From positions 1 through 37,342 of the forward strand of contig SDNY01000025.1 in assembly GCA_004524535.1 (NCBI GenBank): a stretch of 37,342 bases of DNA, given 5' to 3'. The notes beneath the pieces are model-generated. The model was not told the DNA's origin, ran no database searches, and worked only from the letters and a program-made list of their open reading frames with translations. Shown here one piece after another: positions 8,375 through 20,793 of the stretch (position 1 is its first letter; each line of letters opens with the position of its first letter). The translations under genes and the position numbers were made by a program. Source of the stretch: Promethearchaeota archaeon (GTDB lineage Archaea > Asgardarchaeota > Lokiarchaeia > Sigyniarchaeales > SOKP01).

Positions 8375-8479
8375 GCTTCTGTAGTGTAGTGCGGTCAAAC
8401 TTCTCCTTAAATTAAGAATAAGGATCACGCATGCGAGGCTCTCACCCTCGCGACCCGGGTTCAAATCCCGGCAGAAGCA
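8375..8479 (+). tRNA. tRNA-Glu(CTC) with an ~30-nt intron in the D-arm (about 8399-8428)
   Basis: Acceptor stem GCTTCTG/CAGAAGC, anticodon arm CGAGG-CT-CTC-AC-CCTCG, T-arm CCGGG-TTCAAAT-CCCGG. Removing about 8399-8428 restores the D-arm GTGT-AGTGCGGTCAA-GCAT. No encoded CCA. Confidence 0.93.
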
Positions 8480-9364: not shown

Positions 9365-10570
9365 ATGAATACTGATTTGTTTGAAGAACTATTAAAGCAG
9401 CCTTCAAATTTCAAAGATGAAAGTACACTTGATATAAATTTTGTTCCAGACAGATTACCACACAGAAGAAAAGAATTGTCTTTACTATCTCAACTTTTTT
9501 TAACACTATTAACAAATCCAAATGTAATTTCAAGAAAAATTTTGATAACTGGGAAAACTGGTATAGGTAAAACTGTTACTGTTAAGTTGTTTGGAATGAT
9601 ATTAAGTGAAGCATCAAAAAAAAGAAATATTTCTCTAAAATATATCCATGTAAATTGTAGAAAAGAACGTACGAGTTATAAAGTATTAATAAAGATTATA
9701 CAATCAATAAATAATAATTTTCCAAAAAGGGGATTTTCTTCACAGGATCTTTTAGAGAGTATAAATAATTATCTTAATATTCAAAATCAACACCTTTTAA
9801 TCGTGCTTGATGAATTAAATTATCTTATAAAAAAAGATAAGGATGTAATTTATTCGTTAACTCGTTTAAACGATGATTCATTTAATGTCCCCCAGAGATT
9901 ATCAATCATTGGAATTGTAAGAGATATTTCTTGTATAAACAATTTAGATGCAAGCACATTAAGTACACTTCAAAGAAATATTATAAATTTTGATGTATAT
10001 ACTAATCAACAAATCTTCGATATTTTAAAATTTAGAGCAGAGCTTAGTTTAAAAAAAAATGTGATATCGGATGAATTAATTAAAATGATATCAAATATAG
10101 TTTTCGTGGAAGGCGATATAAGATATGGTTTAAATTTATTATGGAAGGCTTGCAAAATTGCTGAGAGTAAGGACTTAAAATTGATTACTTCCGAATGTGT
10201 TAGGCTAGCGAATCATGATTTGGTTCCATTTTCAACTTTAGATGTCTTAAAGGACATGCCGGTGCAAAAACTTATATTTTTACTTTCAATTGTAATCCTT
10301 TTAAAAAAAAAAAAAGAACCACAAATATCATTCATGGAGATTTTAAAATCATATCTTGTGTTATGCGAAAATACTGGTATGAATCCTCGCTCTTATTCCC
10401 AACTATGGAACTATCTACAAGAACATAAAAGAGAAAACTTAATAACAATAAATTTAAAGAGTAAAGAGATTAGAGGAAGGAGAGCTTTAGTTGAAATTCA
10501 GGATATACCTTTACCAAAATATGAAGAAATAATCATAGATATTTTGAATTCAAAAGGTATAAATATATGA
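9365..10570 (+). CDS. cdc6: Orc1/Cdc6 replication initiator (AAA+ plus wHTH)
   Basis: FVPDRLPHR, Walker A GKTGIGKT, HVNC, Walker B IVLDE, GDIRYGL. Confidence 0.93.
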   Translation: MNTDLFEELLKQPSNFKDESTLDINFVPDRLPHRRKELSLLSQLFLTLLTNPNVISRKILITGKTGIGKTVTVKLFGMILSEASKKRNISLKYIHVNCRKERTSYKVLIKIIQSINNNFPKRGFSSQDLLESINNYLNIQNQHLLIVLDELNYLIKKDKDVIYSLTRLNDDSFNVPQRLSIIGIVRDISCINNLDASTLSTLQRNIINFDVYTNQQIFDILKFRAELSLKKNVISDELIKMISNIVFVEGDIRYGLNLLWKACKIAESKDLKLITSECVRLANHDLVPFSTLDVLKDMPVQKLIFLLSIVILLKKKKEPQISFMEILKSYLVLCENTGMNPRSYSQLWNYLQEHKRENLITINLKSKEIRGRRALVEIQDIPLPKYEEIIIDILNSKGINI

Positions 10571-10860
10571 TTATTAATGAGAAAAGTAAAAAGTACCTTA
10601 TTGAGGAATTATTAGGTTCCAAGGCAAGATTGAAAATATTAAAAACTCTGGCGCTAAATGAAGAATTAAATATCTCATTAATTATTTCTAAAACGAAATT
10701 AAACCATGCTAATGTTTTAAAACATTTAAATTTTTTAAAATCATTTAATTTAATTCAAGAAAAGAAATTTGGCCGGATTAGAATTTATCGATATAAAAAT
10801 GAAAATATTAAAGCAAGGAGTTTAAAGAATTTCATTGAAATTTGGGAAAGCGATGTTTAA
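10567..10860 (+). CDS. ArsR-like winged-helix transcriptional regulator
   Basis: LLGSKARLKILKTL...HANVLKHLNFLKSFNLIQEKKFGRIRIY. Coupled to cdc6 by an ATGA overlap. Confidence 0.85.
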   Translation: MIINEKSKKYLIEELLGSKARLKILKTLALNEELNISLIISKTKLNHANVLKHLNFLKSFNLIQEKKFGRIRIYRYKNENIKARSLKNFIEIWESDV

Positions 10861-11533
10861 TTTCATGTTATCAATAATATTTGGTATAGATTTTATATTT
10901 ATTGCGATAATTTTAATTTTTTCTCTATATTTCGATTTAAAATTTAGAAGGATTTCGAATAAACATCTTAAAATTTTTTATTTAATTAGTCTAATTCTAA
11001 ATTTTTTAGAATTTTGGATTTTTTATAAAATCTTTTTATTGTTCATTATTTTGAAATTTCTTATTATTATTTTAACATTTCTAATATCTTTACTATTATT
11101 TTCTCTTAAAATTATAGGAGGTGGTGATGGAAAATTAATTATTTTAATATTTTTAACTCATCCAATTAAATATTTGGAATTCGGTTTAGTACTTTTATTC
11201 TTTTTATTATTTTCACTTCTATTTTTTATATTCTTTTTTTCAAACTTCTTAATCAATCATATCGTGAAAAATTCCTATTCATTCGAGATTCTTTTTAGTT
11301 ATAACATTAAGATTTCTGTTTTTAAAAGATTTTATTTGAAAATGTTCTTTAGATTTTTTAATTTATCAGAAATTATAGATTATCAGGGATATAAGAAATC
11401 AATAAAGTCTCAAACGATATTTTATAATAGTATTAAGAAGAAATTACAATTATTTGCTCAATATCAACCACCTCTCGTTATTATGTGTATATTATCCTAT
11501 TACACAATTTTTTTTCTAAAAATAGGATTTTAA
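10853..11533 (+). CDS. Prepilin peptidase (A24 family, FlaK/PibD-like)
   Basis: Multi-TM protein with two aspartate motifs, YFDLKFRRISN and IIGGGDGKL. The ATG at 10853 is preferred over the TTG at 10835. Confidence 0.82.
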   Translation: MFNFMLSIIFGIDFIFIAIILIFSLYFDLKFRRISNKHLKIFYLISLILNFLEFWIFYKIFLLFIILKFLIIILTFLISLLLFSLKIIGGGDGKLIILIFLTHPIKYLEFGLVLLFFLLFSLLFFIFFFSNFLINHIVKNSYSFEILFSYNIKISVFKRFYLKMFFRFFNLSEIIDYQGYKKSIKSQTIFYNSIKKKLQLFAQYQPPLVIMCILSYYTIFFLKIGF

Positions 11534-11583
11534 ATAGTTTTTTACAAACTTAAAATTAAAAATATAAAGTAACAAAATTAAAA

Positions 11584-11898
11584 ATGAAAGAGATTATTAC
11601 AAAAGATTCTTTAAACCAATCTATTGAATTGATTTCAGAGTTGAATCTCAACGACGAGGATTATGAAAAAATTTTCGAAAAATTTAAATTAATGTTGAAT
11701 AATTCGGAAATGAAAGAAGCAATTAAAAAATTTTCAGGAGTCAGAGAGATTGAAAAAGAAAATGACTTAAAAACAATTATGAAAACGCTTATAAATAAGA
11801 TAAGATTATCTGACTTAAATCAATTATTAGGAAATATTGTTAAAAACGAGGATCTCATAGATTTTATTCAAGATTTGTTTTTAGAGAAATTAATCTAA
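11584..11898 (+). CDS. Hypothetical acidic helical protein
   Basis: 104-aa ORF with an ATG start and host-like composition. Confidence 0.65.
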   Translation: MKEIITKDSLNQSIELISELNLNDEDYEKIFEKFKLMLNNSEMKEAIKKFSGVREIEKENDLKTIMKTLINKIRLSDLNQLLGNIVKNEDLIDFIQDLFLEKLI

Positions 11899-12075
11899 AT
11901 TCTTATTTTATTTTTTTTTTATCTTAAGCTCATTTTTAATCCAAATAAAAGGTTCTATAATATTAAAGATAAAACTTTATTTTCGTAGTTGTATAATGTT
12001 TTAAAAAAATCAAAATATCATTAGTTTAAACTCAAAATTTTTATCCTAGAGAAAATATCTTAAAGATTCTTCTTC

Positions 12076-12085
12076 TTGCCGATAC
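12076..12085 (+). repeat. Left terminal inverted repeat TTGCCGATAC
   Basis: Exact reverse complement of GTATCGGCAA at 20361-20370. Both copies sit at the compositional borders of the element. Confidence 0.55.
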
Positions 12086-12127
12086 TCGTATTAGAGATAA
12101 TATGCTTCGCTTCTTTATTATAAGCCA

Positions 12128-12523
12128 CTATTCAATTTTTATTACTTTCATGGTAATAATTCCCTTGTATCGACATATATCACAATAATAATTTATTTTT
12201 GTATTATTATCATAGACATTATTTAATAAATATAGATTTTTTATTCTTCCACAATTAGCACATTTCCCTTTTAAATATACTACTTTTTTAGCCAACTGAT
12301 GTAAGGAAATATTCGGTAATTCCTCTTTATCTGACATTCTATTTGTCCTAATTCTGTATTCTTTATCTGGATATGACATTAATTTTTCCCCCGTTTTCAT
12401 AGAAAAAATCATGATATAATTTTTAAAATATTTATAATATGCCTTTTCATATTCCCCCACCATTTTATTCTTTTCTTTTTCATACACATATATCGTAGTC
12501 ATTAAGGTATCTCTCCAATTCAT
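12128..12523 (-). CDS. Element protein with C-terminal Zn finger
   Basis: CANC...CDIC. Last gene of the minus-strand array. Confidence 0.75.
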   Translation of the reverse strand: MNWRDTLMTTIYVYEKEKNKMVGEYEKAYYKYFKNYIMIFSMKTGEKLMSYPDKEYRIRTNRMSDKEELPNISLHQLAKKVVYLKGKCANCGRIKNLYLLNNVYDNNTKINYYCDICRYKGIITMKVIKIE

Positions 12524-12748
12524 TTAAGGTATTTCTCCCTTCCATAATTCCCATATTTTCTTATTTTCAATATCTACCATCTTATCCAAGATTTTCGATA
12601 TATTATAATAAGCCGTCTTAATATTTTCTCTTTCTTCCACATTCCCCATAATTCCCACTCTGAAACCATAACTCTGATAATCTTTTGTATATTTCCGATG
12701 CACCGATATTTTTATTTCTTTTACACTTACCACTAACGCATCACCCAC
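12524..12748 (-). CDS. Element hypothetical protein
   Basis: Abuts the downstream gene. The exact start is uncertain. Confidence 0.65.
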   Translation of the reverse strand: MGDALVVSVKEIKISVHRKYTKDYQSYGFRVGIMGNVEERENIKTAYYNISKILDKMVDIENKKIWELWKGEIP

Positions 12749-12761
12749 ATTTCATAAATCT

Positions 12762-12929
12762 TTATTCTAATAAAGCATTCAATTTTTCGATTAAATCCTT
12801 AACTTCATTTTCTTCAAGATACAACATTAATATATCACCATACATATCTTCGAACAGAATTCTAAACAGCTTTCCATTTACACCAACTTTTATCTTTTCT
12901 ATTTCTTCCATTCCAAATTCTATTGGCAT
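12762..12929 (-). CDS. Element hypothetical protein, 55 aa (absent from the ORF track)
   Basis: MPIEFGMEEIEKIKVGVNGKLFRILFEDMYGDILMLYLEENEVKDLIEKLNALLE*. TAATG overlap with the Rep stop codon and an upstream GGTGA SD. Confidence 0.7.
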   Translation of the reverse strand: MPIEFGMEEIEKIKVGVNGKLFRILFEDMYGDILMLYLEENEVKDLIEKLNALLE

Positions 12930-13753
12930 TAATATATCACCTTATCATACATTCCTTTTTTGATATTTTTTATTTTTCTAAATAATTTTCTATATCCATT
13001 TTCCCCAAACGAATCATAATACTCTATAAAGTTCTGTTTCGTAAGCAATAATTTACTAATACACTGATTATACTTTACCATATCACTTTTTTTAAACATC
13101 GGCTTTACAACAAATTGATAACCACGCCCAAAATTCCACTTTTTTCCGCTACTTTTGATTTTTCCTAATTTAGTTGGTTTTAGTAAATCCTTATTTACAT
13201 AATATATTAAATTTCTTTTATGCTGACTTCCTAGACCTTTTAATTCTCGTGCATACACAATTCCTTTACCCCATTTTCTATACAACAAATAACCCATCAT
13301 TATTTCCACATCAGATTTTTTATAATTCATATAGTGTGTTCGTGCTTTTTTTATCATTTTAATTATATCAACTTTCCCTGCTTCCCAACCCTTTCTAAAC
13401 ATTTTTTTTGCTATATATTCCTTATTAAATTTTTTTTTAAATTCAAATAACAAATGAAAATGTGATCTCTGATTTTTCGTTCCTTCTTCATATTTCCAGA
13501 AATATTTTCTTCCTTTGTTATATATCGTTTTTGTATCTCTTAAAAAACCTTCCAATTCTTTTCCACTTGCACCCCCCTTCCTTAACATTTCATTTAATGA
13601 TTCCGTATTATAAGTCAATACTACATGCCATTCCCATTTAATTCCCGTTACCCCTATTATTTTATCCCGCATATCCTGTAATGATTTGCTTATTTTAGGA
13701 TATACATCCCAAAACCCTTCTTCATTATATACCGAATTTACTAATTTACTCAT
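12929..13753 (-). CDS. HUH rolling-circle replication initiator (Rep), catalytic motifs intact
   Basis: Motif I WHVVLTY, motif II YFWKYEEG...RSHFHLLF (HUH), then WGKG, and motif III YYVNKDL (YxxK). Confidence 0.85.
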   Translation of the reverse strand: MSKLVNSVYNEEGFWDVYPKISKSLQDMRDKIIGVTGIKWEWHVVLTYNTESLNEMLRKGGASGKELEGFLRDTKTIYNKGRKYFWKYEEGTKNQRSHFHLLFEFKKKFNKEYIAKKMFRKGWEAGKVDIIKMIKKARTHYMNYKKSDVEIMMGYLLYRKWGKGIVYARELKGLGSQHKRNLIYYVNKDLLKPTKLGKIKSSGKKWNFGRGYQFVVKPMFKKSDMVKYNQCISKLLLTKQNFIEYYDSFGENGYRKLFRKIKNIKKGMYDKVIY

Positions 13754-14589
13754 ACCTTCAATTTCACTTGTTTCTTTATTCCTTTTTTCATTTCCATTAA
13801 ATCATTTATCGTTCTTGCATACACTATTTCCCCAGAATAGTCTCTTTTTTCTGTAAAGTATTTTATAAAATTCTCTTTGGTGCTCTCCAAACTTTTTTCC
13901 GCTTCTTCCACCGATACATTTCCCAGCCATTCATATTCCGATTTTTTTTTTACCTTCTTAGTTTTAATTCCCCTCGAAAATCCATATTTTCTTTTATTTG
14001 GTTTAAACCCTTCCGTTCCCGTTCTTTTAGCCACATCTTTTTCCACTTGCTCAATTAATTCTTCCATCGATGTAATTTCCCTTGCATATACAATTCCCTT
14101 ATCCCATAATCTATACATTGAATATCCCATAATTATATCGTTATCCGATTTTTCCTTATTCATTTCATACCCCTTTTGCACTCGAATTACCTCTTTCATA
14201 TCATTTACCCCCATGACTTTTTCTAGTTCCTTTTTTTTCTTGTCTACATCCTTTAACTCAAATAATAAATGAAAGTGTGGTCGCTCTGATTTCCTCCCTT
14301 CTTCATACTTCCAAAAATGTTTTTCCTCAGGAAATATCTTTTTTATTTTTGTTAAATACCCCCGTAATATCGTTGAATCTATTCCCTTTTTTTTCTTTTC
14401 CTCATAGACTTCACTATTCAATGATAATACGACATGATAGTTCCAATTTACCCCTTCACAATTATATATTTTATGTCGCATTCTCATCGTAGATTGAGAA
14501 ATGGTTTTCATTCCCTTCGGAACACGAATATTATAGAATTCCGCTTCTATATGCCATAATAAAGTAATTTCTACAACCGCAGAACTCAT
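13750..14589 (-). CDS. HUH Rep paralog lacking the motif III tyrosine
   Basis: YHVVLSL, HFWKYEEG...RPHFHLLF, WDKGIVYARE, then EQVEKDV where the paralog has YYVNKDL. Confidence 0.82.
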   Translation of the reverse strand: MSSAVVEITLLWHIEAEFYNIRVPKGMKTISQSTMRMRHKIYNCEGVNWNYHVVLSLNSEVYEEKKKKGIDSTILRGYLTKIKKIFPEEKHFWKYEEGRKSERPHFHLLFELKDVDKKKKELEKVMGVNDMKEVIRVQKGYEMNKEKSDNDIIMGYSMYRLWDKGIVYAREITSMEELIEQVEKDVAKRTGTEGFKPNKRKYGFSRGIKTKKVKKKSEYEWLGNVSVEEAEKSLESTKENFIKYFTEKRDYSGEIVYARTINDLMEMKKGIKKQVKLKV

Positions 14590-14592
14590 TTT

Positions 14593-14805
14593 TTACCTCT
14601 TCAGAAATTTTTCAATACTATTTAATTTTACTTTATACCCACATTCAATATTATTGCAATAATAAATAATGTTATTTCCCTCTTTTTTAAGCCATACCCT
14701 TCCTTCTCCACATCGTGGGCATACCTTGTCTGTTTCCTTACATAAATATTTTTGCCCAATTATTCCCATAATTATTGTCATAATTATTCCCATAATTTTT
14801 TCCAT
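14593..14805 (-). CDS. Small Zn-ribbon protein
   Basis: CPRCG...YCNNIECGY, preceded by a short hydrophobic repeat (IMGII twice). Confidence 0.7.
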   Translation of the reverse strand: MEKIMGIIMTIIMGIIGQKYLCKETDKVCPRCGEGRVWLKKEGNNIIYYCNNIECGYKVKLNSIEKFLKR

Positions 14806-15225
14806 CTATTCCATCCACTCAAGCAATCTATTCGTCATATCTCTAATTTTTTCCAATACCCCATAATTATCCTCAATTATCTTACTTGCATAATTACCAT
14901 TTATTTTTTCAAGTTCTTTCATATATTCTACCGTCCTCCAAAAATGTGATACTAACTTATCAATTTTTATCTTATCAGCTACTTGTTTTTCGTCATTCAC
15001 ATCACTTTTTATTGATACCGCTTTTTCAGAAGACCCCGCTTCTCCCATTTTTTCCAATAACCAACTTTTCACTTTAATTATTTGCAATCCTTCTTTATCT
15101 TTCGAATCTACATCTCTTACTTGCGATTTTGGAAACCATTGTTCTCTTCCATCTGGTAATCTAAATAGGAACGCTTTACCTGATTCCGCTACTAAATAAC
15201 ACTCAAAATCTTTAAACTCACTCAT
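14806..15225 (-). CDS. Virus-type small beta-domain protein (WFPKSQ motif), possibly nucleic-acid binding
   Basis: ESGKAFLFRLPDGREQWFPKSQV resembles a motif common in small phage proteins. GAGGT SD present. The function is inferred. Confidence 0.65.
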   Translation of the reverse strand: MSEFKDFECYLVAESGKAFLFRLPDGREQWFPKSQVRDVDSKDKEGLQIIKVKSWLLEKMGEAGSSEKAVSIKSDVNDEKQVADKIKIDKLVSHFWRTVEYMKELEKINGNYASKIIEDNYGVLEKIRDMTNRLLEWME

Positions 15226-15313
15226 ATTTTTTACCTCTTTTTATTTTATTTTAATCTATTTTATTTTATTTTATTTCATTATAAAAAAAAAAAAAAAGCT
15301 GTTAATTAATTTT

Positions 15314-15727
15314 TTAAATTTTTCTTGAATATGCTCTTGAAGATGAACTTTTACTTGTTTTACCCGAATACTCTTTTTCTTCGTAATTTCTACATCGCCA
15401 GCAAGCTGGTTTCGGTTTAAACATTGGTTTACCTTTATCATCTTTTTTTCCAAAAGTTTTATCCCTATGAATCCCTGACATCATCTGGAATTTTATATAA
15501 TCTTTCCCATCATCCTCATATTTCGGGCATGGAACTTTTTCAAGATTATACATTCTACTTATTGGTATACAGAATAAAATATCTTTCCCACCTCTTGCTA
15601 CTCTTACCCAGATAGCTTTTCCAGATTTTACCGCTACAACACTTCCTCCAGCAATACTGAGCATAATTGATTTCCCATCCATCGTCTTATTATACGCACA
15701 TTCATAAATATAAGTTTTTAGCTCCAT
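15314..15727 (-). CDS. Element basic hypothetical protein
   Basis: 137 aa, Lys-rich, CWRC motif, GAGGTGA SD. Confidence 0.7.
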   Translation of the reverse strand: MELKTYIYECAYNKTMDGKSIMLSIAGGSVVAVKSGKAIWVRVARGGKDILFCIPISRMYNLEKVPCPKYEDDGKDYIKFQMMSGIHRDKTFGKKDDKGKPMFKPKPACWRCRNYEEKEYSGKTSKSSSSRAYSRKI

Positions 15728-15729
15728 TT

Positions 15730-16074
15730 TTATATCTTCACCTCGATAAATTTATCATGATGCTGATATTCTTTCACTTTATTTATGGTATCTTTCACGA
15801 ATTCATTGATTTGGGCTATCGTATCCGCTTCATTTGACTTTGACATTAATTTCTTAAAGGTAATCTCTAATTCTGTTATCAATACCTTTTTCCATTTTTT
15901 TCCCAGTTTCATGACTCCTCTCAGAAATTTCTTGTTTTGACTTGTTATATCGTATCCTAATTTTATCAACAATCTCTTCCATTTTCTCCTATTTGACAAT
16001 ATCCAAATAAAGAAAGTTATTACCGATGTTAAACTAATCGTTACTATCCCACCACCTATTACAATATCAAACAC
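15730..16074 (-). CDS. Element membrane-anchored protein
   Basis: N-terminal TM segment followed by basic RRKWKR and a helical tail. GAGGTGA SD before a GTG start. Confidence 0.75.
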   Translation of the reverse strand: MFDIVIGGGIVTISLTSVITFFIWILSNRRKWKRLLIKLGYDITSQNKKFLRGVMKLGKKWKKVLITELEITFKKLMSKSNEADTIAQINEFVKDTINKVKEYQHHDKFIEVKI

Positions 16075-16085
16075 TTTTTATCACC

Positions 16086-16724
16086 TCAGAACCATCCTTT
16101 TTTCTTCTTCTTCGATTTCTTTGGTTTTGGCAGTTTAAATACCGATTTTACTGTTTTTTTCGCTTTCTTAGAAGAGACTTTTGGTAATGCTATTATACTT
16201 TTTCGCTTCATTGTATTTGCAAATAGTTTTGGCACATCTACTGTTTTTTTCTTAGTCGCCTTTGCGACTGCACTTCCGAAGATACTAAATCTTTTACCAA
16301 CATCCCCGCCCATTTTACTCATACTTTTTGTAATCCCTGACAATCCTTTTGGGATACCTTTTGAGCTCAGCTTCAATCCTTCTCCAATAGTTCCAGAGAA
16401 CATTTTACCTATTCCCCCACCAATATCACTAACTCCACCTGTAATCATTTTCCCAAGACCACTAACTCCACCTGTAACCATTTGTCCAAGTTTACTTAAT
16501 CCACCCATTGCTTGTTGTCCAAGTCCACCTACCCCACCGAAGAAGGTTTCTCCTAATTTGCTAAATCCACCGAACAGTTTACCCCGAAGAACATACCATC
16601 CCACTAACACCGCTCCCGTTACACCCCCGCCTATCAATAGATATTTTATCCATTTCCTTCCCGAACTTCTTTGCCCTTTATTTCCTAACATTCCCATCAT
16701 TTGCGGAACAACAGTCATCGCCAT
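16086..16724 (-). CDS. Gly-rich membrane protein with 11-residue repeats and a Lys-rich tail (putative virion membrane or DNA-pilot protein)
   Basis: TM segment YLLIGGGVTGAVLVGWYVL, then repeats GGFSKLGETFF/GGVGGLGQQAM/GGLSKLGQMVT/GGVSGLGKMIT, then KPKKSKKKKKGWF. Confidence 0.75.
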   Translation of the reverse strand: MAMTVVPQMMGMLGNKGQRSSGRKWIKYLLIGGGVTGAVLVGWYVLRGKLFGGFSKLGETFFGGVGGLGQQAMGGLSKLGQMVTGGVSGLGKMITGGVSDIGGGIGKMFSGTIGEGLKLSSKGIPKGLSGITKSMSKMGGDVGKRFSIFGSAVAKATKKKTVDVPKLFANTMKRKSIIALPKVSSKKAKKTVKSVFKLPKPKKSKKKKKGWF

Positions 16725-16734
16725 TTTTTATCAC

Positions 16735-17157
16735 CTAAATCCTTCGTGAACCGCTACCGCTACGAACTTTTTGTAATTTTGGAACACCTGTTTTTACCGC
16801 ATCAAATAGCTTAGCTCCCCACTTCGTCGCTGTCGCAATATTCTGTAAAAAATCACTGATTCTTTTTAGTAGATCATTATCAATCTGTATCCCAAATGTT
16901 TTAAAGATATTGTCGATAAATTGCATGTTATCTCCTACCGTATCTACCGATTCCGCTAAATCCGAGCTGTTATATACTTTTATTTTATCATACAAAGGAG
17001 CTAACTTTACCCCTACATCAGTCCCTTTATCTATGATAATTAACGCCCCTGCACCAATCAATATCCACGGCAATGCTCTCAACACATTATCTATCGAAAA
17101 AAAATCTGCTAAAAAGTTTTTCGCTGAATCTTCGTCAATCTTTTTTATTTCCGACAT
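16735..17157 (-). CDS. Element membrane protein (putative virion membrane protein)
   Basis: Hydrophobic segment ALPWILIGAGALIII and a basic C-terminus. Confidence 0.7.
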   Translation of the reverse strand: MSEIKKIDEDSAKNFLADFFSIDNVLRALPWILIGAGALIIIDKGTDVGVKLAPLYDKIKVYNSSDLAESVDTVGDNMQFIDNIFKTFGIQIDNDLLKRISDFLQNIATATKWGAKLFDAVKTGVPKLQKVRSGSGSRRI

Positions 17158-17167
17158 CTAAATCCCC

Positions 17168-17911
17168 CTATTGTGATGGGCTTAATAGTTCTTCCACTTC
17201 TTCGGGCAAGAATCCTTTTCCTATTACTAATCGGGTATCAATTGCAATACTACCTGAAATACTACCCCCATTCGTGCTAGCCGCACAATATCCTAATCCA
17301 TGCGAACCAATATATAAATATAGAATATCTTTTAGCTTTTCCACACTAAATGACGATTTTATCGGAGTAAATATAGGTATTGAATTCTTCTTAGTCGTAG
17401 TTGCAATAACACCTTCAGCATTGCTTACAAGACCATTTTCTGGAGTAGTTTGATATGCTGAATACGGAAACCCTATACAATCTTCATTATTCCAAGATGT
17501 TATCGGCTTTCTACTTATCCAATATTTCAAATGCCCCCCTTTCAATCTTGCTACTGCATCTGCGGGCTCACTCGACAAACTCATTGTTATTAGTGTTTGC
17601 ACTCCATATATTTCCACTTCTTTACATGGATATTCAATCAACATATCCTGTGGAAATATATCCCCCGACTCGAACTGCACATTCTCTGGATTTTGGTCGT
17701 ATTCATGGAAATGTTCCGCTTGACTCCCTGCACCAATTGACCCCGCAATGGTTATAGTCCTTGTTTTTTTCTCACTTAACGCCACAAAGCTCTCTCCATA
17801 TCGCATGACAAACCTTCCACTTTCTCTTAGAATTACTTCTAGAGCATTACTTGTTATACTTTTCACTAACCCAATGTTTACTATTTTATTATCCCCTGTT
17901 ATAAAAGTCAT
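17168..17911 (-). CDS. Beta-rich 247-aa protein, candidate major capsid protein
   Basis: Largest non-Rep ORF, with alternating hydrophobic strand patterns and an AGGTGA SD. The ORF is well supported; the capsid role is inference only. Confidence 0.55.
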   Translation of the reverse strand: MTFITGDNKIVNIGLVKSITSNALEVILRESGRFVMRYGESFVALSEKKTRTITIAGSIGAGSQAEHFHEYDQNPENVQFESGDIFPQDMLIEYPCKEVEIYGVQTLITMSLSSEPADAVARLKGGHLKYWISRKPITSWNNEDCIGFPYSAYQTTPENGLVSNAEGVIATTTKKNSIPIFTPIKSSFSVEKLKDILYLYIGSHGLGYCAASTNGGSISGSIAIDTRLVIGKGFLPEEVEELLSPSQ

Positions 17912-17929
17912 ATTTTTTTTTCACCTGCT

Positions 17930-18118
17930 TCATACATCACTTTTAATTTTTAATAATGGTGATAGGTCTTTACGGTCATTCGTGTTAACATTACTAATGC
18001 TCACCCCTACTTGCGATAATCTATTTTGTTGAGCTTCATCCACGATTATTAACACCCCTATTCTTGCACCGACCACAGTTTTATCGCATTCATGAATAAT
18101 ATATAATATTATTTTCAT
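17930..18118 (-). CDS. Element hypothetical protein
   Basis: ATGA overlap with the upstream ORF. Confidence 0.55.
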   Translation of the reverse strand: MKIILYIIHECDKTVVGARIGVLIIVDEAQQNRLSQVGVSISNVNTNDRKDLSPLLKIKSDV

Positions 18119-18303
18119 GGCAATACTCTATTTTCTACTATTTTTTTTACCGATTCATTCTTTTGTCCACATCGAAAAATCGGTCTTAATTTATCAATTC
18201 GCATTTTCCTTTCTTCCAGCCCTACCTTAATAATAGTTCCTTCACAAAAAGGAAAATTATTCCATCTACATCCTATACAGGTTTCATTTATTTTATTTTC
18301 CAT
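18115..18303 (-). CDS. Small Cys-rich element protein
   Basis: CIGCRWNNFPFCEG...FRCG, with a GGAGG SD. Confidence 0.7.
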   Translation of the reverse strand: MENKINETCIGCRWNNFPFCEGTIIKVGLEERKMRIDKLRPIFRCGQKNESVKKIVENRVLP

Positions 18304-18308
18304 TTTTT

Positions 18309-18845
18309 CTAATCCCTCCTTTTTTTAAATACCACTTGAATCGTATATACTTCTACCGACCGACCCGCATGATTTAATTTAATTTGCATTGCTACAATAT
18401 CACCAATTTCAAAATTTTCTTTTCTTAATATATAAAGATATTTTTGTCCACCTAATTCCCCACACGCTGGAAATTCTATATCCACATTATTTTCTACATT
18501 TTCCATAGTCCCTTGTTCAGAACCATCAGTCTTACATGCACCGACATTTAACTTCATATTAACCACCCCTCCATTTGCATCTATTCGCATGAACGGAATA
18601 ATCATTTTTATATCAAAGTTGTCATCCCACTGCTTATCTATATATACCGAACATGATATATTAGCTCCTACTACATTCATTACAATTCCCGGCACATACA
18701 TAATTGCTCCATTCAGATAACTTAACGATAAATTTGTCGTAGTAAACGGTGAACCCACAAAACTCAATACTTCTCCCTTTTTACATTGTGGTCTTATTTT
18801 CCCTACTTCTTTTTCATATTGGTCTATTTCCCATTGTTCTGTCAT
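18309..18845 (-). CDS. Beta-rich protein, paralog B (candidate spike/receptor-binding protein)
   Basis: Alignable over its full length with 18849-19388 (MTEQWE.DQYEK, VGSPF, WD.NFD.K.IIP, DGSE, NVEN.V.I.FP, GDIV). Confidence 0.75.
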   Translation of the reverse strand: MTEQWEIDQYEKEVGKIRPQCKKGEVLSFVGSPFTTTNLSLSYLNGAIMYVPGIVMNVVGANISCSVYIDKQWDDNFDIKMIIPFMRIDANGGVVNMKLNVGACKTDGSEQGTMENVENNVDIEFPACGELGGQKYLYILRKENFEIGDIVAMQIKLNHAGRSVEVYTIQVVFKKRRD

Positions 18846-18848
18846 CTT

Positions 18849-19388
18849 TTATTCCCTTTTTTTTTTATAAGTTATTTCCCACGCATATATTCTTACATCC
18901 CTATCACTTTGATTTAATACTATGCCTATTGATACAATATCCCCCTGATGAATATTTTCACTCCGTAGTAAATATTGATATTTTCCAAAACAATTATACC
19001 CCACATCTGGAAATGTTATACCCACTTCATTTTCTACATTATACCCATCATATTCTTCGCTCCCATCTGAGCTATAAGCATATACTCTTAATTTAAATTG
19101 CACACCCCCGCCACCATTAGTATCGTATCTAAAATACGGAATAATCACTTTTACATCAAAATTTTCATCCCATTTTGAATCTACATACATACTTATTCCC
19201 ACGACATCATTTATTTCACTCATTCGTATTTGGTCGCTACACATAGTTGCTCGATAATAGAAAGGTGTCAAAACAGCCGTATTAAATGGAGATCCTACAT
19301 CCATTACAACATCCCCTTTTTCAACGCATGTCGGTTTTATCTTTTTACAAGCTTTTTCGTATTGGTCAAGTTCCCATTGCTCAGTCAT
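18849..19388 (-). CDS. Beta-rich protein, paralog A (candidate spike/receptor-binding protein)
   Basis: The true start is probably ATG 19388 (MTEQWEL...), which follows GGAGG and matches the paralog's N-terminus. Confidence 0.75.
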   Translation of the reverse strand: MTEQWELDQYEKACKKIKPTCVEKGDVVMDVGSPFNTAVLTPFYYRATMCSDQIRMSEINDVVGISMYVDSKWDENFDVKVIIPYFRYDTNGGGGVQFKLRVYAYSSDGSEEYDGYNVENEVGITFPDVGYNCFGKYQYLLRSENIHQGDIVSIGIVLNQSDRDVRIYAWEITYKKKRE

Positions 19389-19521
19389 TACATGCCTCCA
19401 CATTCCGTATTAAAATCCGTATTATCCCAAACACTTTATTCTTATCCAAAATCTCTGCTTCTTTCCATATATACATTACCGTTTTTTCTATTTCATATTT
19501 CATATCGTCATTTAACTCCAT
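19381..19521 (-). CDS. Element hypothetical protein, 46 aa (absent from the ORF track)
   Basis: MELNDDMKYEIEKTVMYIWKEAEILDKNKVFGIIRILIRNVEACND*. It overlaps the next start (ATGACTGA) and fills the gap in the operon. Confidence 0.6.
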   Translation of the reverse strand: MELNDDMKYEIEKTVMYIWKEAEILDKNKVFGIIRILIRNVEACND

Positions 19522-19525
19522 AATG

Positions 19526-19714
19526 CTATAGACCCCCCAATTTCTTTCCACAATATGGGCAGAATTTCATTCCTTCCCCCATAAACTTTACTCCATTTTC
19601 TTTCGCCAAATAATCTACAATCAACATATAATCCACTAATTTTTGCCATTCTTTACACTTACACTTTTTCAATGAGAAGCACATCCATTGTTCACTTATC
19701 TCAGTCTTTTCCAT
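19526..19714 (-). CDS. Small Zn-binding element protein
   Basis: KCKCKEW...FCPYCGKKL. Confidence 0.7.
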   Translation of the reverse strand: MEKTEISEQWMCFSLKKCKCKEWQKLVDYMLIVDYLAKENGVKFMGEGMKFCPYCGKKLGGL

Positions 19715-19925
19715 GTTCTTCCACCATCCTTTTTAGCTCCATTTTTAGCTCCATTTTTATACGCTCACCTCGATAGACTCTATATACCTGATACTGAATG
19801 CATTTTTTATACTTACAAAAGCAGTAATATTCATTCTTAAATATTGTCTCACATCCTTCAAAATACGGGCATTCCTCCACTCTTACTTGCTGATTCTCTA
19901 TAATATGATTTTCCATTTCCCTCAC
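19701..19925 (-). CDS. Small Cys-rich element protein, first gene of the minus-strand array
   Basis: CPYFEGC...YCFCKYKKCIQY. The start may instead be ATG at 19916. Confidence 0.65.
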   Translation of the reverse strand: MREMENHIIENQQVRVEECPYFEGCETIFKNEYYCFCKYKKCIQYQVYRVYRGERIKMELKMELKRMVEEHGKD

Positions 19926-19952
19926 TTCTTAAAATGTAAGTTCTACGAAAAA
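19923..19952 (-). repeat. Degenerate inverted copy of the 20273-20302 site
   Basis: The reverse complement reads TTTTTCGTAGAA-CTTACA-TTTTAAGAAGTG, with the same 6-bp spacer and similar arms. Confidence 0.7.
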
Positions 19953-20080
19953 CCTAATAGGAAGTATGAAAATAGGAAAAAAAGGAAATATTTAAAAGGA
20001 AAAAATATCACTTTATAAATTGTTGTGTATTGAAATTATCGACATAATTATAAAAAAAAAAAGATCGTGATGTTTTGTAA

Positions 20081-20272
20081 ATGAATGGTTTTGAATATGA
20101 AACTAAAGATAAGGAAGGATGGGAAACTTTTTATATCGTAGAAGAAATGAAAATAAATTACAAACAATGGAATGAAACATTATATTTAGAAGTTAAATAT
20201 ATAGATGCTGATGGAAATCATTCAGAGAAGGAATTCTTTTTTAAAGAAGATATTAAATTAAAAATATATTAA
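20081..20272 (+). CDS. Small acidic protein, the only plus-strand gene of the element
   Basis: 63-aa ATG ORF that lies between the two inverted 30-bp sites. Confidence 0.65.
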   Translation: MNGFEYETKDKEGWETFYIVEEMKINYKQWNETLYLEVKYIDADGNHSEKEFFFKEDIKLKIY

Positions 20273-20302
20273 AAGTTCGTGAAACTTACATTTCACGAAC
20301 TT
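20273..20302. repeat. Perfect palindrome with 12-bp arms and a 6-bp spacer
   Basis: AAGTTCGTGAAA-CTTACA-TTTCACGAACTT. Confidence 0.9.
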
Positions 20303-20360
20303 ACCCCCATATCTTCAGAATACCCTAATAATATCCCCCAAATCTCAATTTGGATTTTTT

Positions 20361-20370
20361 GTATCGGCAA
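20361..20370 (-). repeat. Right terminal inverted repeat GTATCGGCAA
   Basis: Reverse complement of 12076-12085. Confidence 0.55.
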
Positions 20371-20526
20371 AAAAGACTGCCTAAAAAATCCTACACTCTC
20401 ATATTAATAACCCACACTTATACACTTTATATTATCACAAATAAATACTTGTCAAATTAAGATTACTAATGTTGAGATGTGTGCACAATATAATAATTAG
20501 TAATTATAATTAATTATATATATAAT

Positions 20527-20615
20527 ATTACTAGTAATTTATTTAATTATATTATTTAATTATTTATTTATTATTTAATTACTAGTAATTAATTTAATTA
20601 TATTATTTAATTATT
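20527..20615. repeat. 38-bp direct repeat (two copies, 1 mismatch, period 51) in a nearly pure A/T tract
   Basis: ATTACTAGTAATT(T/A)ATTTAATTATATTATTTAATTATT at 20527 and 20578. Each copy begins with the palindrome ATTACTAGTAAT. Confidence 0.8.
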
Positions 20616-20793
20616 AATATTAATTAACAATTATAGATATATTACATATAATAATTGTGAACTTCAATATTACTATTAATTTATTATTGCTATAATTTAT
20701 ATTGAAACCATCTGTAAAGATATAAAATTTTAAATTTAAAAATTTCTATGTTATTAATGAAATTATATAATTCCCTAATGTGAAAAATAAAAA

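Follow-up and report, generated by a model that had tools for sequence, protein, structure and literature searches.

A conserved HUH Rep paralog that appears to lack its nucleophile is encoded beside a complete Rep in an integrated Asgard archaeal element

Two related replication initiators (Reps) of the HUH type are encoded by overlapping genes in a Promethearchaeota archaeon, and one of them appears to have lost its catalytic nucleophile and little else. The genes lie in a stretch of 37,342 nucleotides, hereafter the window (contig SDNY01000025.1 of assembly GCA_004524535.1), within an inserted element of 8,654 bp whose host is an Asgard archaeon. The downstream protein, RepD, carries all three motifs of a rolling-circle Rep. 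In the upstream protein, RepU, the Tyr of motif III is replaced by Gln, while the metal-binding HUH motif and nearly all other conserved positions are retained. The features of the locus are as follows.

13750 to 14589, minus strand: RepU, the upstream HUH Rep paralog, 279 amino acids, with HVVLS, HFH, and EQVEKD (Gln181 for Tyr)
12929 to 13753, minus strand: RepD, the downstream HUH Rep paralog, 274 amino acids, with all three motifs (HVVLT, HFH, and YYVNKD)
13750 to 13753, minus strand: ATGA overlap of the RepU stop and the RepD start, from the sequence and the ends of the open reading frames
14047 to 14049, minus strand: RepU codon 181, CAA (Gln), in the place of the catalytic Tyr, from the sequence and column counts
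13199 to 13204, minus strand: RepD codons 184-185, TAT TAT (Tyr-Tyr), Tyr185 being the Y of Y-x-x-K, from the sequence and alignments
14269 to 14277, minus strand: RepU HUH motif, His105-Phe-His107, intact, from the sequence and the alignment
13454 to 13462, minus strand: RepD HUH motif, His98-Phe-His100, from the sequence and the alignment

Both genes are listed as uninterrupted open reading frames (ORFs) on the minus strand. At 13750-13753 the plus strand reads tcat, which gives the RepD start codon ATG at 13753-13751 and the RepU stop codon TGA at 13752-13750. A BLASTP comparison of the two proteins yields 99 identities over 261 positions (38%, E 1e-42), and their paralogy is therefore far above chance. 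Motif I stands in the context WNYHVVLS in RepU and WEWHVVLT in RepD, the string KGIVYARE is found in both, and the motif III stretch reads LIYYVNKDLLK in RepD and LIEQVEKDVAK in RepU. The motif III Tyr of HUH Reps makes the covalent 5'-phosphotyrosine link to DNA. An initial annotation made from the sequence had described adjacent, overlapping paralogs that share motif I, HFH, and KGIVYARE, with YYVNKDL downstream, EQVEKDV upstream, and a Tyr-less copy that is full length and uninterrupted; all of this can be read directly in the DNA. A contig from the source sample covering 10500-15233 has 0 differing letters, although contigs lose rare variants and a minor Tyr allele is possible.

To place this substitution in its family, we searched 1.84 billion representative proteins with a profile and obtained 101 relatives at E <= 1e-3, with 25 at E <= 1e-10. 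The resulting alignment has 35 family rows: 6 RepU-type, 10 RepD-type, 10 from three intermediate clades, and 9 distant. The column that holds RepD Tyr185 and RepU Gln181 is the conserved Y of the Y-x-x-K(-D) motif. Tyr fills it in 28/29 non-RepU rows, the sole exception being the Phe of P0020, and Gln fills it in 6/6 rows of the RepU clade. A seventh RepU-type sequence, the fragment P0026, reads QQVERD and has Gln as well, so that the claimed absence of the catalytic Tyr from the upstream copy extends to its whole clade. P0020 belongs to another clade of the family and may represent a second, independent loss.

The remainder of RepU has changed little. Counting as conserved any column that reaches at least 75% in the 29 non-RepU rows, and as a departure any such column at which at least 5/6 RepU-clade rows differ, the clade departs at 3 of 35 columns (Leu to Thr34, Gly to Ser72, and Tyr to Gln181) and keeps the other 32. 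Among what is kept are the HUH His pair, the WKYEEG strand, Lys184, Asp185, and Lys188. The first His of the HUH motif is present in 28/29 and the second in 29/29 non-RepU rows, and both are present in 6/6 RepU-clade rows. The Thr of motif I is found in 28/29 non-RepU rows and in 4/6 RepU-clade rows, and motif I is recognizable in both proteins. One helical turn past the Tyr position stands an Asp, which is D185 in 6/6 RepU rows and D in 24/29 of the others. As far as these alignments can tell, RepU is specifically a nucleophile-less Rep. A separate irregularity was seen in P0005, a RepD-type protein fused to an upstream domain, which has YYH in place of the HUH motif.

Structure prediction puts the substituted residue where a catalytic Tyr would be expected. 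In the AlphaFold models of both proteins the Y-x-x-K-D motif sits on the helix after the GIVYARE strand (helix 175-190 in RepD and 175-186 in RepU), which is the normal placement of the Tyr helix in this Rep class. RepD has Tyr185-Val-Asn-Lys188 on its helix, after a strand at 164-170, as motif III of the Rep class demands. RepU has Gln181-Val-Glu-Lys184 there and zero Tyr in the entire helix; because motif III is incomplete in this way, RepU belongs to the family as a derivative, through descent and fold, and is not one of its enzymes.

Both models are confident, with AlphaFold2 predicted local distance difference test scores of 93.4 for RepD and 89.1 for RepU, and both proteins are predicted to have the HUH alpha/beta Rep fold. 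In an exhaustive VIA-align comparison with 48,161 solved chains, the best match of each was the Rep ORF119 of the virus SIRV1, with Z 8.4, a root-mean-square deviation (rmsd) of 3.8, and 113/116 positions aligned for RepD, and Z 8.7, rmsd 3.8, and 111/116 for RepU; a Z of about 8 is, by the tool's own note, barely above the level of unrelated models. The matches that followed are again Reps, namely the Helitron Rep (Z 6.8 for RepD and 6.9 for RepU), MVM NS1 (6.3 and 5.9), AAV5 Rep (5.6 and 5.5), pMV158 RepB (Z about 5), and the vientovirus Rep. A Foldseek search of the PDB had no row at E <= 1e-3, its best rows being parvovirus and AAV Rep domains. A comparison with predicted viral structures (BFVD) had 143 rows at E <= 1e-3, and those that carry a name are Microviridae replication initiators and an ORF2/G2P-domain protein.

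Sequence profiles agree with this assignment for RepD. Against the Pfam family PF23343 (REP_ORF2-G2P), with a cut-off of 27.8 bits, RepD scores 29.3 and passes, and RepU scores 16.4 (E 0.011) and falls below. The same profile matches 24/27 members of one family alignment at E <= 0.01, the best at 1.6e-15. Other collections had nothing similar to offer: NCBIfam has no family for either protein, a profile search of PDB sequences gave chance-level rows only (unrelated GTPases, E >= 0.04), an IMG/VR scan gave 73 pattern matches with no relative among them, and tblastn against 50,697 phage records and 72,556 plasmid records found no match.

RepU shows no sign of decay. Between the window and a second genome of the same genus, G007, RepU retains 61-65% amino acid identity with a nonsynonymous divergence (pN) of 0.236, compared with 48% and 0.334 for RepD. 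Conservation of RepU at least equals that of RepD in 3/3 matched element pairs, the further two standing at 60% vs 52% and 58% vs 57%; the closest homolog pair, P0011 with RepU, stands at 74% identity. In the tree, RepU-type proteins are monophyletic (100/100), and their branches are shorter than those of the RepD clade. RepU is full length in 5 database homologs and also in G007, where the sole break is a 10-N scaffold gap. Because only 3 of the 35 conserved columns have changed, the branches are short, pN is lower, and conservation holds in matched pairs, RepU is, on sequence grounds, not decaying but maintained under purifying selection. This accords with the earlier view of the Tyr-less copy as a pseudo-enzyme that is kept.

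The pair itself recurs. Contig C119 of G007 encodes a RepU (AEQVEKD) and a RepD (MYYVNKD) that overlap by about 11 nucleotides, so the pair is present in a second genome. It is probably present on two metagenome contigs as well: P0014 and P0008 are each recorded on a contig of 5574 bp, and P0015 and P0003 each on one of 3546 bp. Among 399 Asgard genomes, the family occurs in 5, all of one taxonomic family, and the pair in 2 of those 5; the source genome, G000, has no second copy of the Rep genes. More distant elements (L011, L013, L014, L017-L022, G243, and G263) have a single Tyr-bearing Rep, often with a zinc-finger insert. The question raised in the initial annotation, whether homologous elements keep an active and an inactive copy, has the answer yes for G007, probably yes for the two metagenome contigs, and no for relatives with one Rep. 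One further small element lies at L011 8833-11500 (contig C3 of G001, same genus); it spans about 3 kb, with one divergent 259-amino-acid Rep and a few small zinc-ribbon ORFs.

How the pair arose is less clear. In the tree, RepU, RepD, and three Tyr-bearing clades form a five-way polytomy, and forcing RepU and RepD into one clade costs 11.5 log-likelihood units, with an approximately unbiased test value (p-AU) of 0.126, so that a sister relation is neither rejected nor supported. Of the tandem duplication put forward in the initial annotation, paralogy and adjacency stand, and the sister relation is what the tree fails to provide. Judged from the sequences, tandem duplication is possible and acquisition of a second Rep is equally open. 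Under either origin, the split between RepU and RepD is old.

The element that carries the pair is delimited at base level by the following features.

12061 to 20714, minus strand: the whole mobile element, 8,654 bp, from an empty site in a related strain and from composition
12061 to 12067: left copy of a 7-bp direct repeat, TAAAGAT, whose 7 letters fit both sides of the joint
20715 to 20721: right copy of TAAAGAT, the single copy left in the empty site, from the empty-site contig

An 851-nt contig from a sister sample (run X2) joins position 12060 to 20715 and skips 8654 bases. Its left flank has 9 substitutions and small indels relative to the window, and it therefore comes from a related strain. 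The empty site and the 7-bp repeat together make the element a genuine insertion of 8,654 bp in an intergenic location; there is no tRNA at either end, and the insertion is not of the integrase-provirus type. In a related element in G007, a similar ATCTTT string was noticed at the Rep-proximal end, at about L010 3484-3489, where the GC skew stops.

Composition also sets the element apart. From about 12000 to 20000 every long gene lies on the minus strand, and GC content is 0.26-0.38 in the element vs about 0.19-0.25 in the nearest flanks. On the plus strand the GC skew of the element is -0.33 to -0.54, and in related contigs (L016-L024 and L010) the skew of the Rep-sense strand is mostly 0.30-0.64, with only 0.15 in L019. 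Such skew in contigs of the Rep family would fit a single-stranded phase, or replication and transcription that run strongly in one direction. The assembled element has the same depth as its flanks (47.7). None of the nine related metagenome contigs has terminal direct repeats, and no circular genome was recovered.

The initial annotation had described an element without an integrase, and this description survives: Pfam and PHROG scans of the element ORFs (19 on the minus strand, 17 PHROG-scanned, and 7 on the plus strand) find no recombinase or transposase family at cut-off, and the empty site proves the insertion. The only match of this type is DDE_Tnp_ISL3 on RepD, at 15.3 bits under a cut-off of 23. 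No element ORF has a Walker A motif, and none has a capsid or ATPase match in Pfam or PHROG. A crude CRISPR scan of the source genome gave no array, and short matches to the element elsewhere in it are of low complexity or lie inside a coding region. We propose that the element is an integrase-less provirus or integrated plasmid.

What RepU does is best approached from what it has kept. The initial annotation had offered three roles for it, as a regulator bound at the origin, as the partner in a heterodimer, or as a helper in integration or excision. The account we favor, tentatively and at a little short of an even chance, is that RepU, without a nucleophile of its own, binds metal and the origin as a partner of RepD and serves as a non-cutting subunit or cofactor. 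RepD would be a complete HUH rolling-circle initiator, with Tyr185 making the 5'-phosphotyrosine link at the origin, and RepU an old paralog of the same fold that kept the metal- and DNA-binding center and, having lost the nucleophile, could form no covalent link of its own. Presumably translated from the same message immediately ahead of RepD, with stop and start overlapping, RepU would bind the same origin DNA, single stranded or in a hairpin, through its intact metal center. Retention of both His argues that it engages DNA of the scissile site through metal and not just duplex. A complex of RepU and RepD would then hold one nucleophile instead of two, which might permit a single nick or round or might position RepD for cleavage and rejoining in replication, excision, or integration. 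We infer the DNA binding of RepU, its physical association with RepD, and the functional outcome from these features of the two proteins. Complex prediction for RepD and RepU with alignments gave a score of 0.00, which counts neither for nor against binding.

Several observations weigh against a working partnership and should be set beside it. Overlaps of 4 nucleotides are frequent even among unrelated neighboring genes. Both metagenome pairings derive from nothing but the equal sizes of the contigs on which the two proteins are recorded. P0009, which is 47% identical to RepD, is the one Rep on contig L016, with an unrelated ORF before it. In P0007 and in P0005, which is 76% identical to the paired P0003, a KAYLF..WFPKS domain is fused to the N terminus of a RepD-type Rep; as the window encodes this domain in a gene of its own, two genes upstream of RepD, no RepU lies between them in those elements. 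RepD-type Reps without RepU imply that these types can work alone and that RepU is accessory. Between the window and G007, pS is 0.75 for RepU and 0.69 for RepD, which is saturated, so that only the relative comparison is meaningful and no ratio of nonsynonymous to synonymous rates (dN/dS) can be stated. Finally, proteins of 490-2000 amino acids include no fused RepU-RepD protein, which is weak evidence.

The same facts, loss of the Tyr with the binding center kept, would also fit a RepU that competes with RepD, a nucleophile-less origin binder that damps or times its partner and so controls copy number, keeps the integrated copy quiet, or excludes relatives. We consider this unlikely, yet it is the alternative that survives best. 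Close relatives that do without RepU speak for a regulator more than for a core subunit, and the element is integrated, at a depth equal to its flanks. A parallel exists in pT181, where RepC is inactivated after one cycle (PMC5714925, as far as its available text goes), and RepU would be the fixed genetic counterpart of that inactive form. The product of an upstream gene, however, would be made whenever RepD is, and at least as abundantly, which is odd for a switchable repressor, and keeping both His in every RepU-clade row exceeds what duplex binding needs. In papillomavirus E1 and SV40 T antigen, the domains that bind the origin have lost these His residues.

Two further explanations, each of them doubtful, would give RepU a share in the chemistry. 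One holds that RepU is still an enzyme, with another nucleophile (Tyr95 or Tyr141) or water activated by Asp185, and acts as a hydrolytic nickase or releases RepD. The kept metal center and the conserved Asp185 point this way, and the pC194 RepA studied by Noirot-Gros and Ehrlich reportedly uses a Glu one turn from the Tyr for hydrolytic termination. Tyr141, in the sequence R/K-K-Y-x-M-N about 34 residues past the HUH motif, is present in 6/6 RepU-clade rows, but the RKYxMN segment is missing from distant members, and this Tyr is therefore not the family nucleophile. Tyr95, in WKYEEG, is invariant in Tyr-bearing members too (29/29 non-RepU rows) and hence has another role there. Gln has no hydroxyl and is no mimic of Tyr, and we know of no HUH enzyme without the helix Tyr that cleaves DNA.

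The other explanation, to which we assign the same low probability, is that RepD and RepU split one HUH machine, an asymmetric pair that, in place of an integrase, would insert and excise the 8.65-kb element at TAAAGAT. RepD would bring the only Tyr, and the intact metal center of RepU together with Asp185 would complete the site across the interface. Alternatively, RepU might take the non-covalent steps: it could hold a second DNA site, bring about hydrolytic release, or nick the chromosomal target.

Slightly less probable again is that the two proteins form no functional pair, RepU being a captured gene or the remnant of a replicon fusion that serves a separate site, for example the target or the element ends. 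The tree, which does not make RepU and RepD sisters among its five clades, leaves room for this, as does the tendency of the element family to swap replication modules, a 247-amino-acid protein being 57-65% identical among elements whose Reps are about 25% identical. The precise insertion with a 7-bp repeat despite the lack of an integrase and two related 24-nt sites in the non-coding end (described below) also suit a separate site of action. On the other side, the sister relation is not rejected at the p-AU given above, two genomes whose Reps share just 48-65% identity have the same gene order and overlap, and a protein without a nucleophile is unable to do strand transfer itself. That RepU is a decaying pseudogene still open by chance is very improbable: its missing Tyr and its score below the Pfam cut-off would suit decay, but it is full length in 5 homologs and G007, has Gln in every clade row, keeps 32 of 35 conserved columns, and evolves more slowly than RepD.

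Comparison with known systems shows which parts of this arrangement are familiar. The initiators of PF23343 and the Microviridae have the same order of motif I, HUH, and Tyr on a later helix, and RepD passes the family cut-off; unlike them, the present proteins have an Asgard host, match no phage or plasmid record, and include a RepU without the Tyr. Proteins of the phiX174 type have a second Tyr one helical turn past the first, the position that Asp occupies in the present family. Circoviruses likewise make two related initiator products from one locus, Rep and the splice variant Rep', which keeps the HUH domain and the Tyr, and the two act together at the origin; here the products are separate paralogous genes, one of them nucleophile-less.

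Two-subunit and two-Tyr initiators offer parallels for the partnership of RepU with RepD that we favor. According to the text available in PMC5714925, phiX174 protein A has two Tyr, one that initiates and one that terminates, and pT181 RepC has one Tyr and forms a dimer in which one subunit starts and the other finishes; RepC is inactivated after a single cycle, which limits copy number. The idea of a two-subunit initiator in which a form with one unusable subunit limits reinitiation is thus shared with pT181, but RepC belongs to Rep_trans and not to HUH (PMC5714925, available text), its asymmetry is chemical and does not come from a second gene, and the association of RepU with RepD is one that we infer. 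The rudivirus SIRV1 ORF119 Rep (PDB 2X3G), an archaeal viral HUH Rep and the best solved match of both proteins, is described in the accessible part of PMC4187194 as a Rep dimer with a catalytic Tyr. It differs in having 119 amino acids and forming a homodimer of active subunits, where the present locus has two genes for 274-279 amino acids, one Tyr-less, with no sequence match to ORF119.

Among Asgard elements, the wyrdviruses WyrdV4 and WyrdV5 are circular and are reported to encode HUH rolling-circle initiators (bioRxiv 10.1101/2021.07.29.453957, available text), and some of the related loci found here belong to the same record series (JABUB..., Ga0209977...). As described in that text, wyrdviruses exceed 10 kb; their capsid protein is His1-like, with ~80 amino acids and a pair of hydrophobic segments, and they also encode an adhesin and a pI-like AAA+ ATPase (bioRxiv 10.1101/2021.07.29.453957). 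The element, at 8.65 kb and with no capsid or ATPase match, is set apart from them by description only, and the available text of that report makes no mention of two Reps. Two other candidates were rejected as relatives: Rep-Arvir, which is Rep_trans-like and not HUH (PMC13107129, available text), and Fylgjavirus 1, for which the available text gives no Rep. Full-text searches of the literature, Asgard virus papers included and supplementary files outside their scope, found no description of an active/inactive Rep gene pair.

Few DNA-cutting enzymes are as well understood as the HUH initiators, and a standing question is how single-Tyr Reps finish a replication round, because termination needs a second nucleophile or a hydrolytic step. 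RepU and RepD present a natural, conserved separation of the nucleophile from the metal center, and with it a system for probing the metal center without the Tyr and for asking whether asymmetric Rep complexes control initiation, termination, or integration. The element also adds to the sparse Asgard mobilome an example that is small and Rep encoding, with base-level ends and a known empty site. It lacks an integrase and resembles none of the catalogued phages or plasmids. Should an asymmetric pair of this kind prove to insert and excise it, the element would be a provirus or plasmid of Asgard archaea in which replication and integration both rely on HUH chemistry and a pseudo-Rep is dedicated to the task.

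The rest of the element holds further genes and a non-coding end, with the following features.

14593 to 14805, minus strand: zinc-ribbon protein of 70 amino acids directly upstream of RepU, with weak Pfam zinc-finger matches, all under the cut-off, and phrog_16186 at E 5.6e-06
14806 to 15225, minus strand: 139-amino-acid protein with an N-terminal KAFLF..WFPKS domain, phrog_8389 at E 3.5e-06, and 32% identity over 63 amino acids to P0007 (E 2e-08)
15314 to 17911, minus strand: non-Rep module of ORFs of 137, 114, 212, 140, and 247 amino acids, from tblastn, several with hydrophobic segments, a putative morphogenesis module
20273 to 20302, no strand assigned: near-perfect hairpin of 12-13 bp, an inverted repeat that is also seen in a fold scan under DNA parameters, and a candidate site for Rep recognition or for the origin

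The WFPKS-type domain also precedes the Rep pair in G007 and forms the N-terminal fusion of P0005 and P0007. The module beyond it recurs in related elements. Its five genes match no Pfam or PHROG family. Its 247-amino-acid protein (17168-17911, minus strand), the product of the best-conserved gene in the element family, which has no usable match in the ESM Atlas (template-modeling score <= 0.34), has homologs at L013 5690-6433, L024 2637-3380, L022 1863-2609, and L018 6-563, the four loci to which the identities given above refer. Given that disparity with the Reps, evolution or exchange is much faster in the replication module than in the putative structural core. The 140-amino-acid ORF of the module is 29-39% identical in related elements. 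The 247-amino-acid protein may be a structural hallmark of an undescribed group of Asgard elements.

In the non-coding end, the hairpin has a predicted folding free energy of -12.3 on the plus strand and -11.7 on the minus strand and stands just past a small plus-strand ORF (20081-20272). A degenerate copy of its 24-nt sequence lies at 19926-19949, adjoining the first minus-strand gene. By their sequence, the hairpin and the degenerate copy are plausible candidates for Rep binding or nick sites. A very AT-rich, palindromic stretch of this end has two 41-nt direct repeats at 20527-20618, 51 nt apart and 95% identical, which resemble iterons.

A few minor observations complete the description of the window. 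A 16S rRNA gene of archaeal type occupies positions 1-1384 on the minus strand, at the window edge, with its 3' end cut off, and a 105-nt tRNA match at 8375-8479, missed by ARAGORN, probably contains an intron. Within the element, a second pair of adjacent paralogs is encoded on the minus strand at 18309-18845 and 18849-19403 (178 and 184 amino acids, 47% identical, E 5e-53); neither protein matches a Pfam or PHROG family, and the related loci searched hold no counterpart. Three 12-nt tandem units at 14758-14805 encode a repeated MGII/MTII peptide at the N terminus of the zinc-ribbon ORF.

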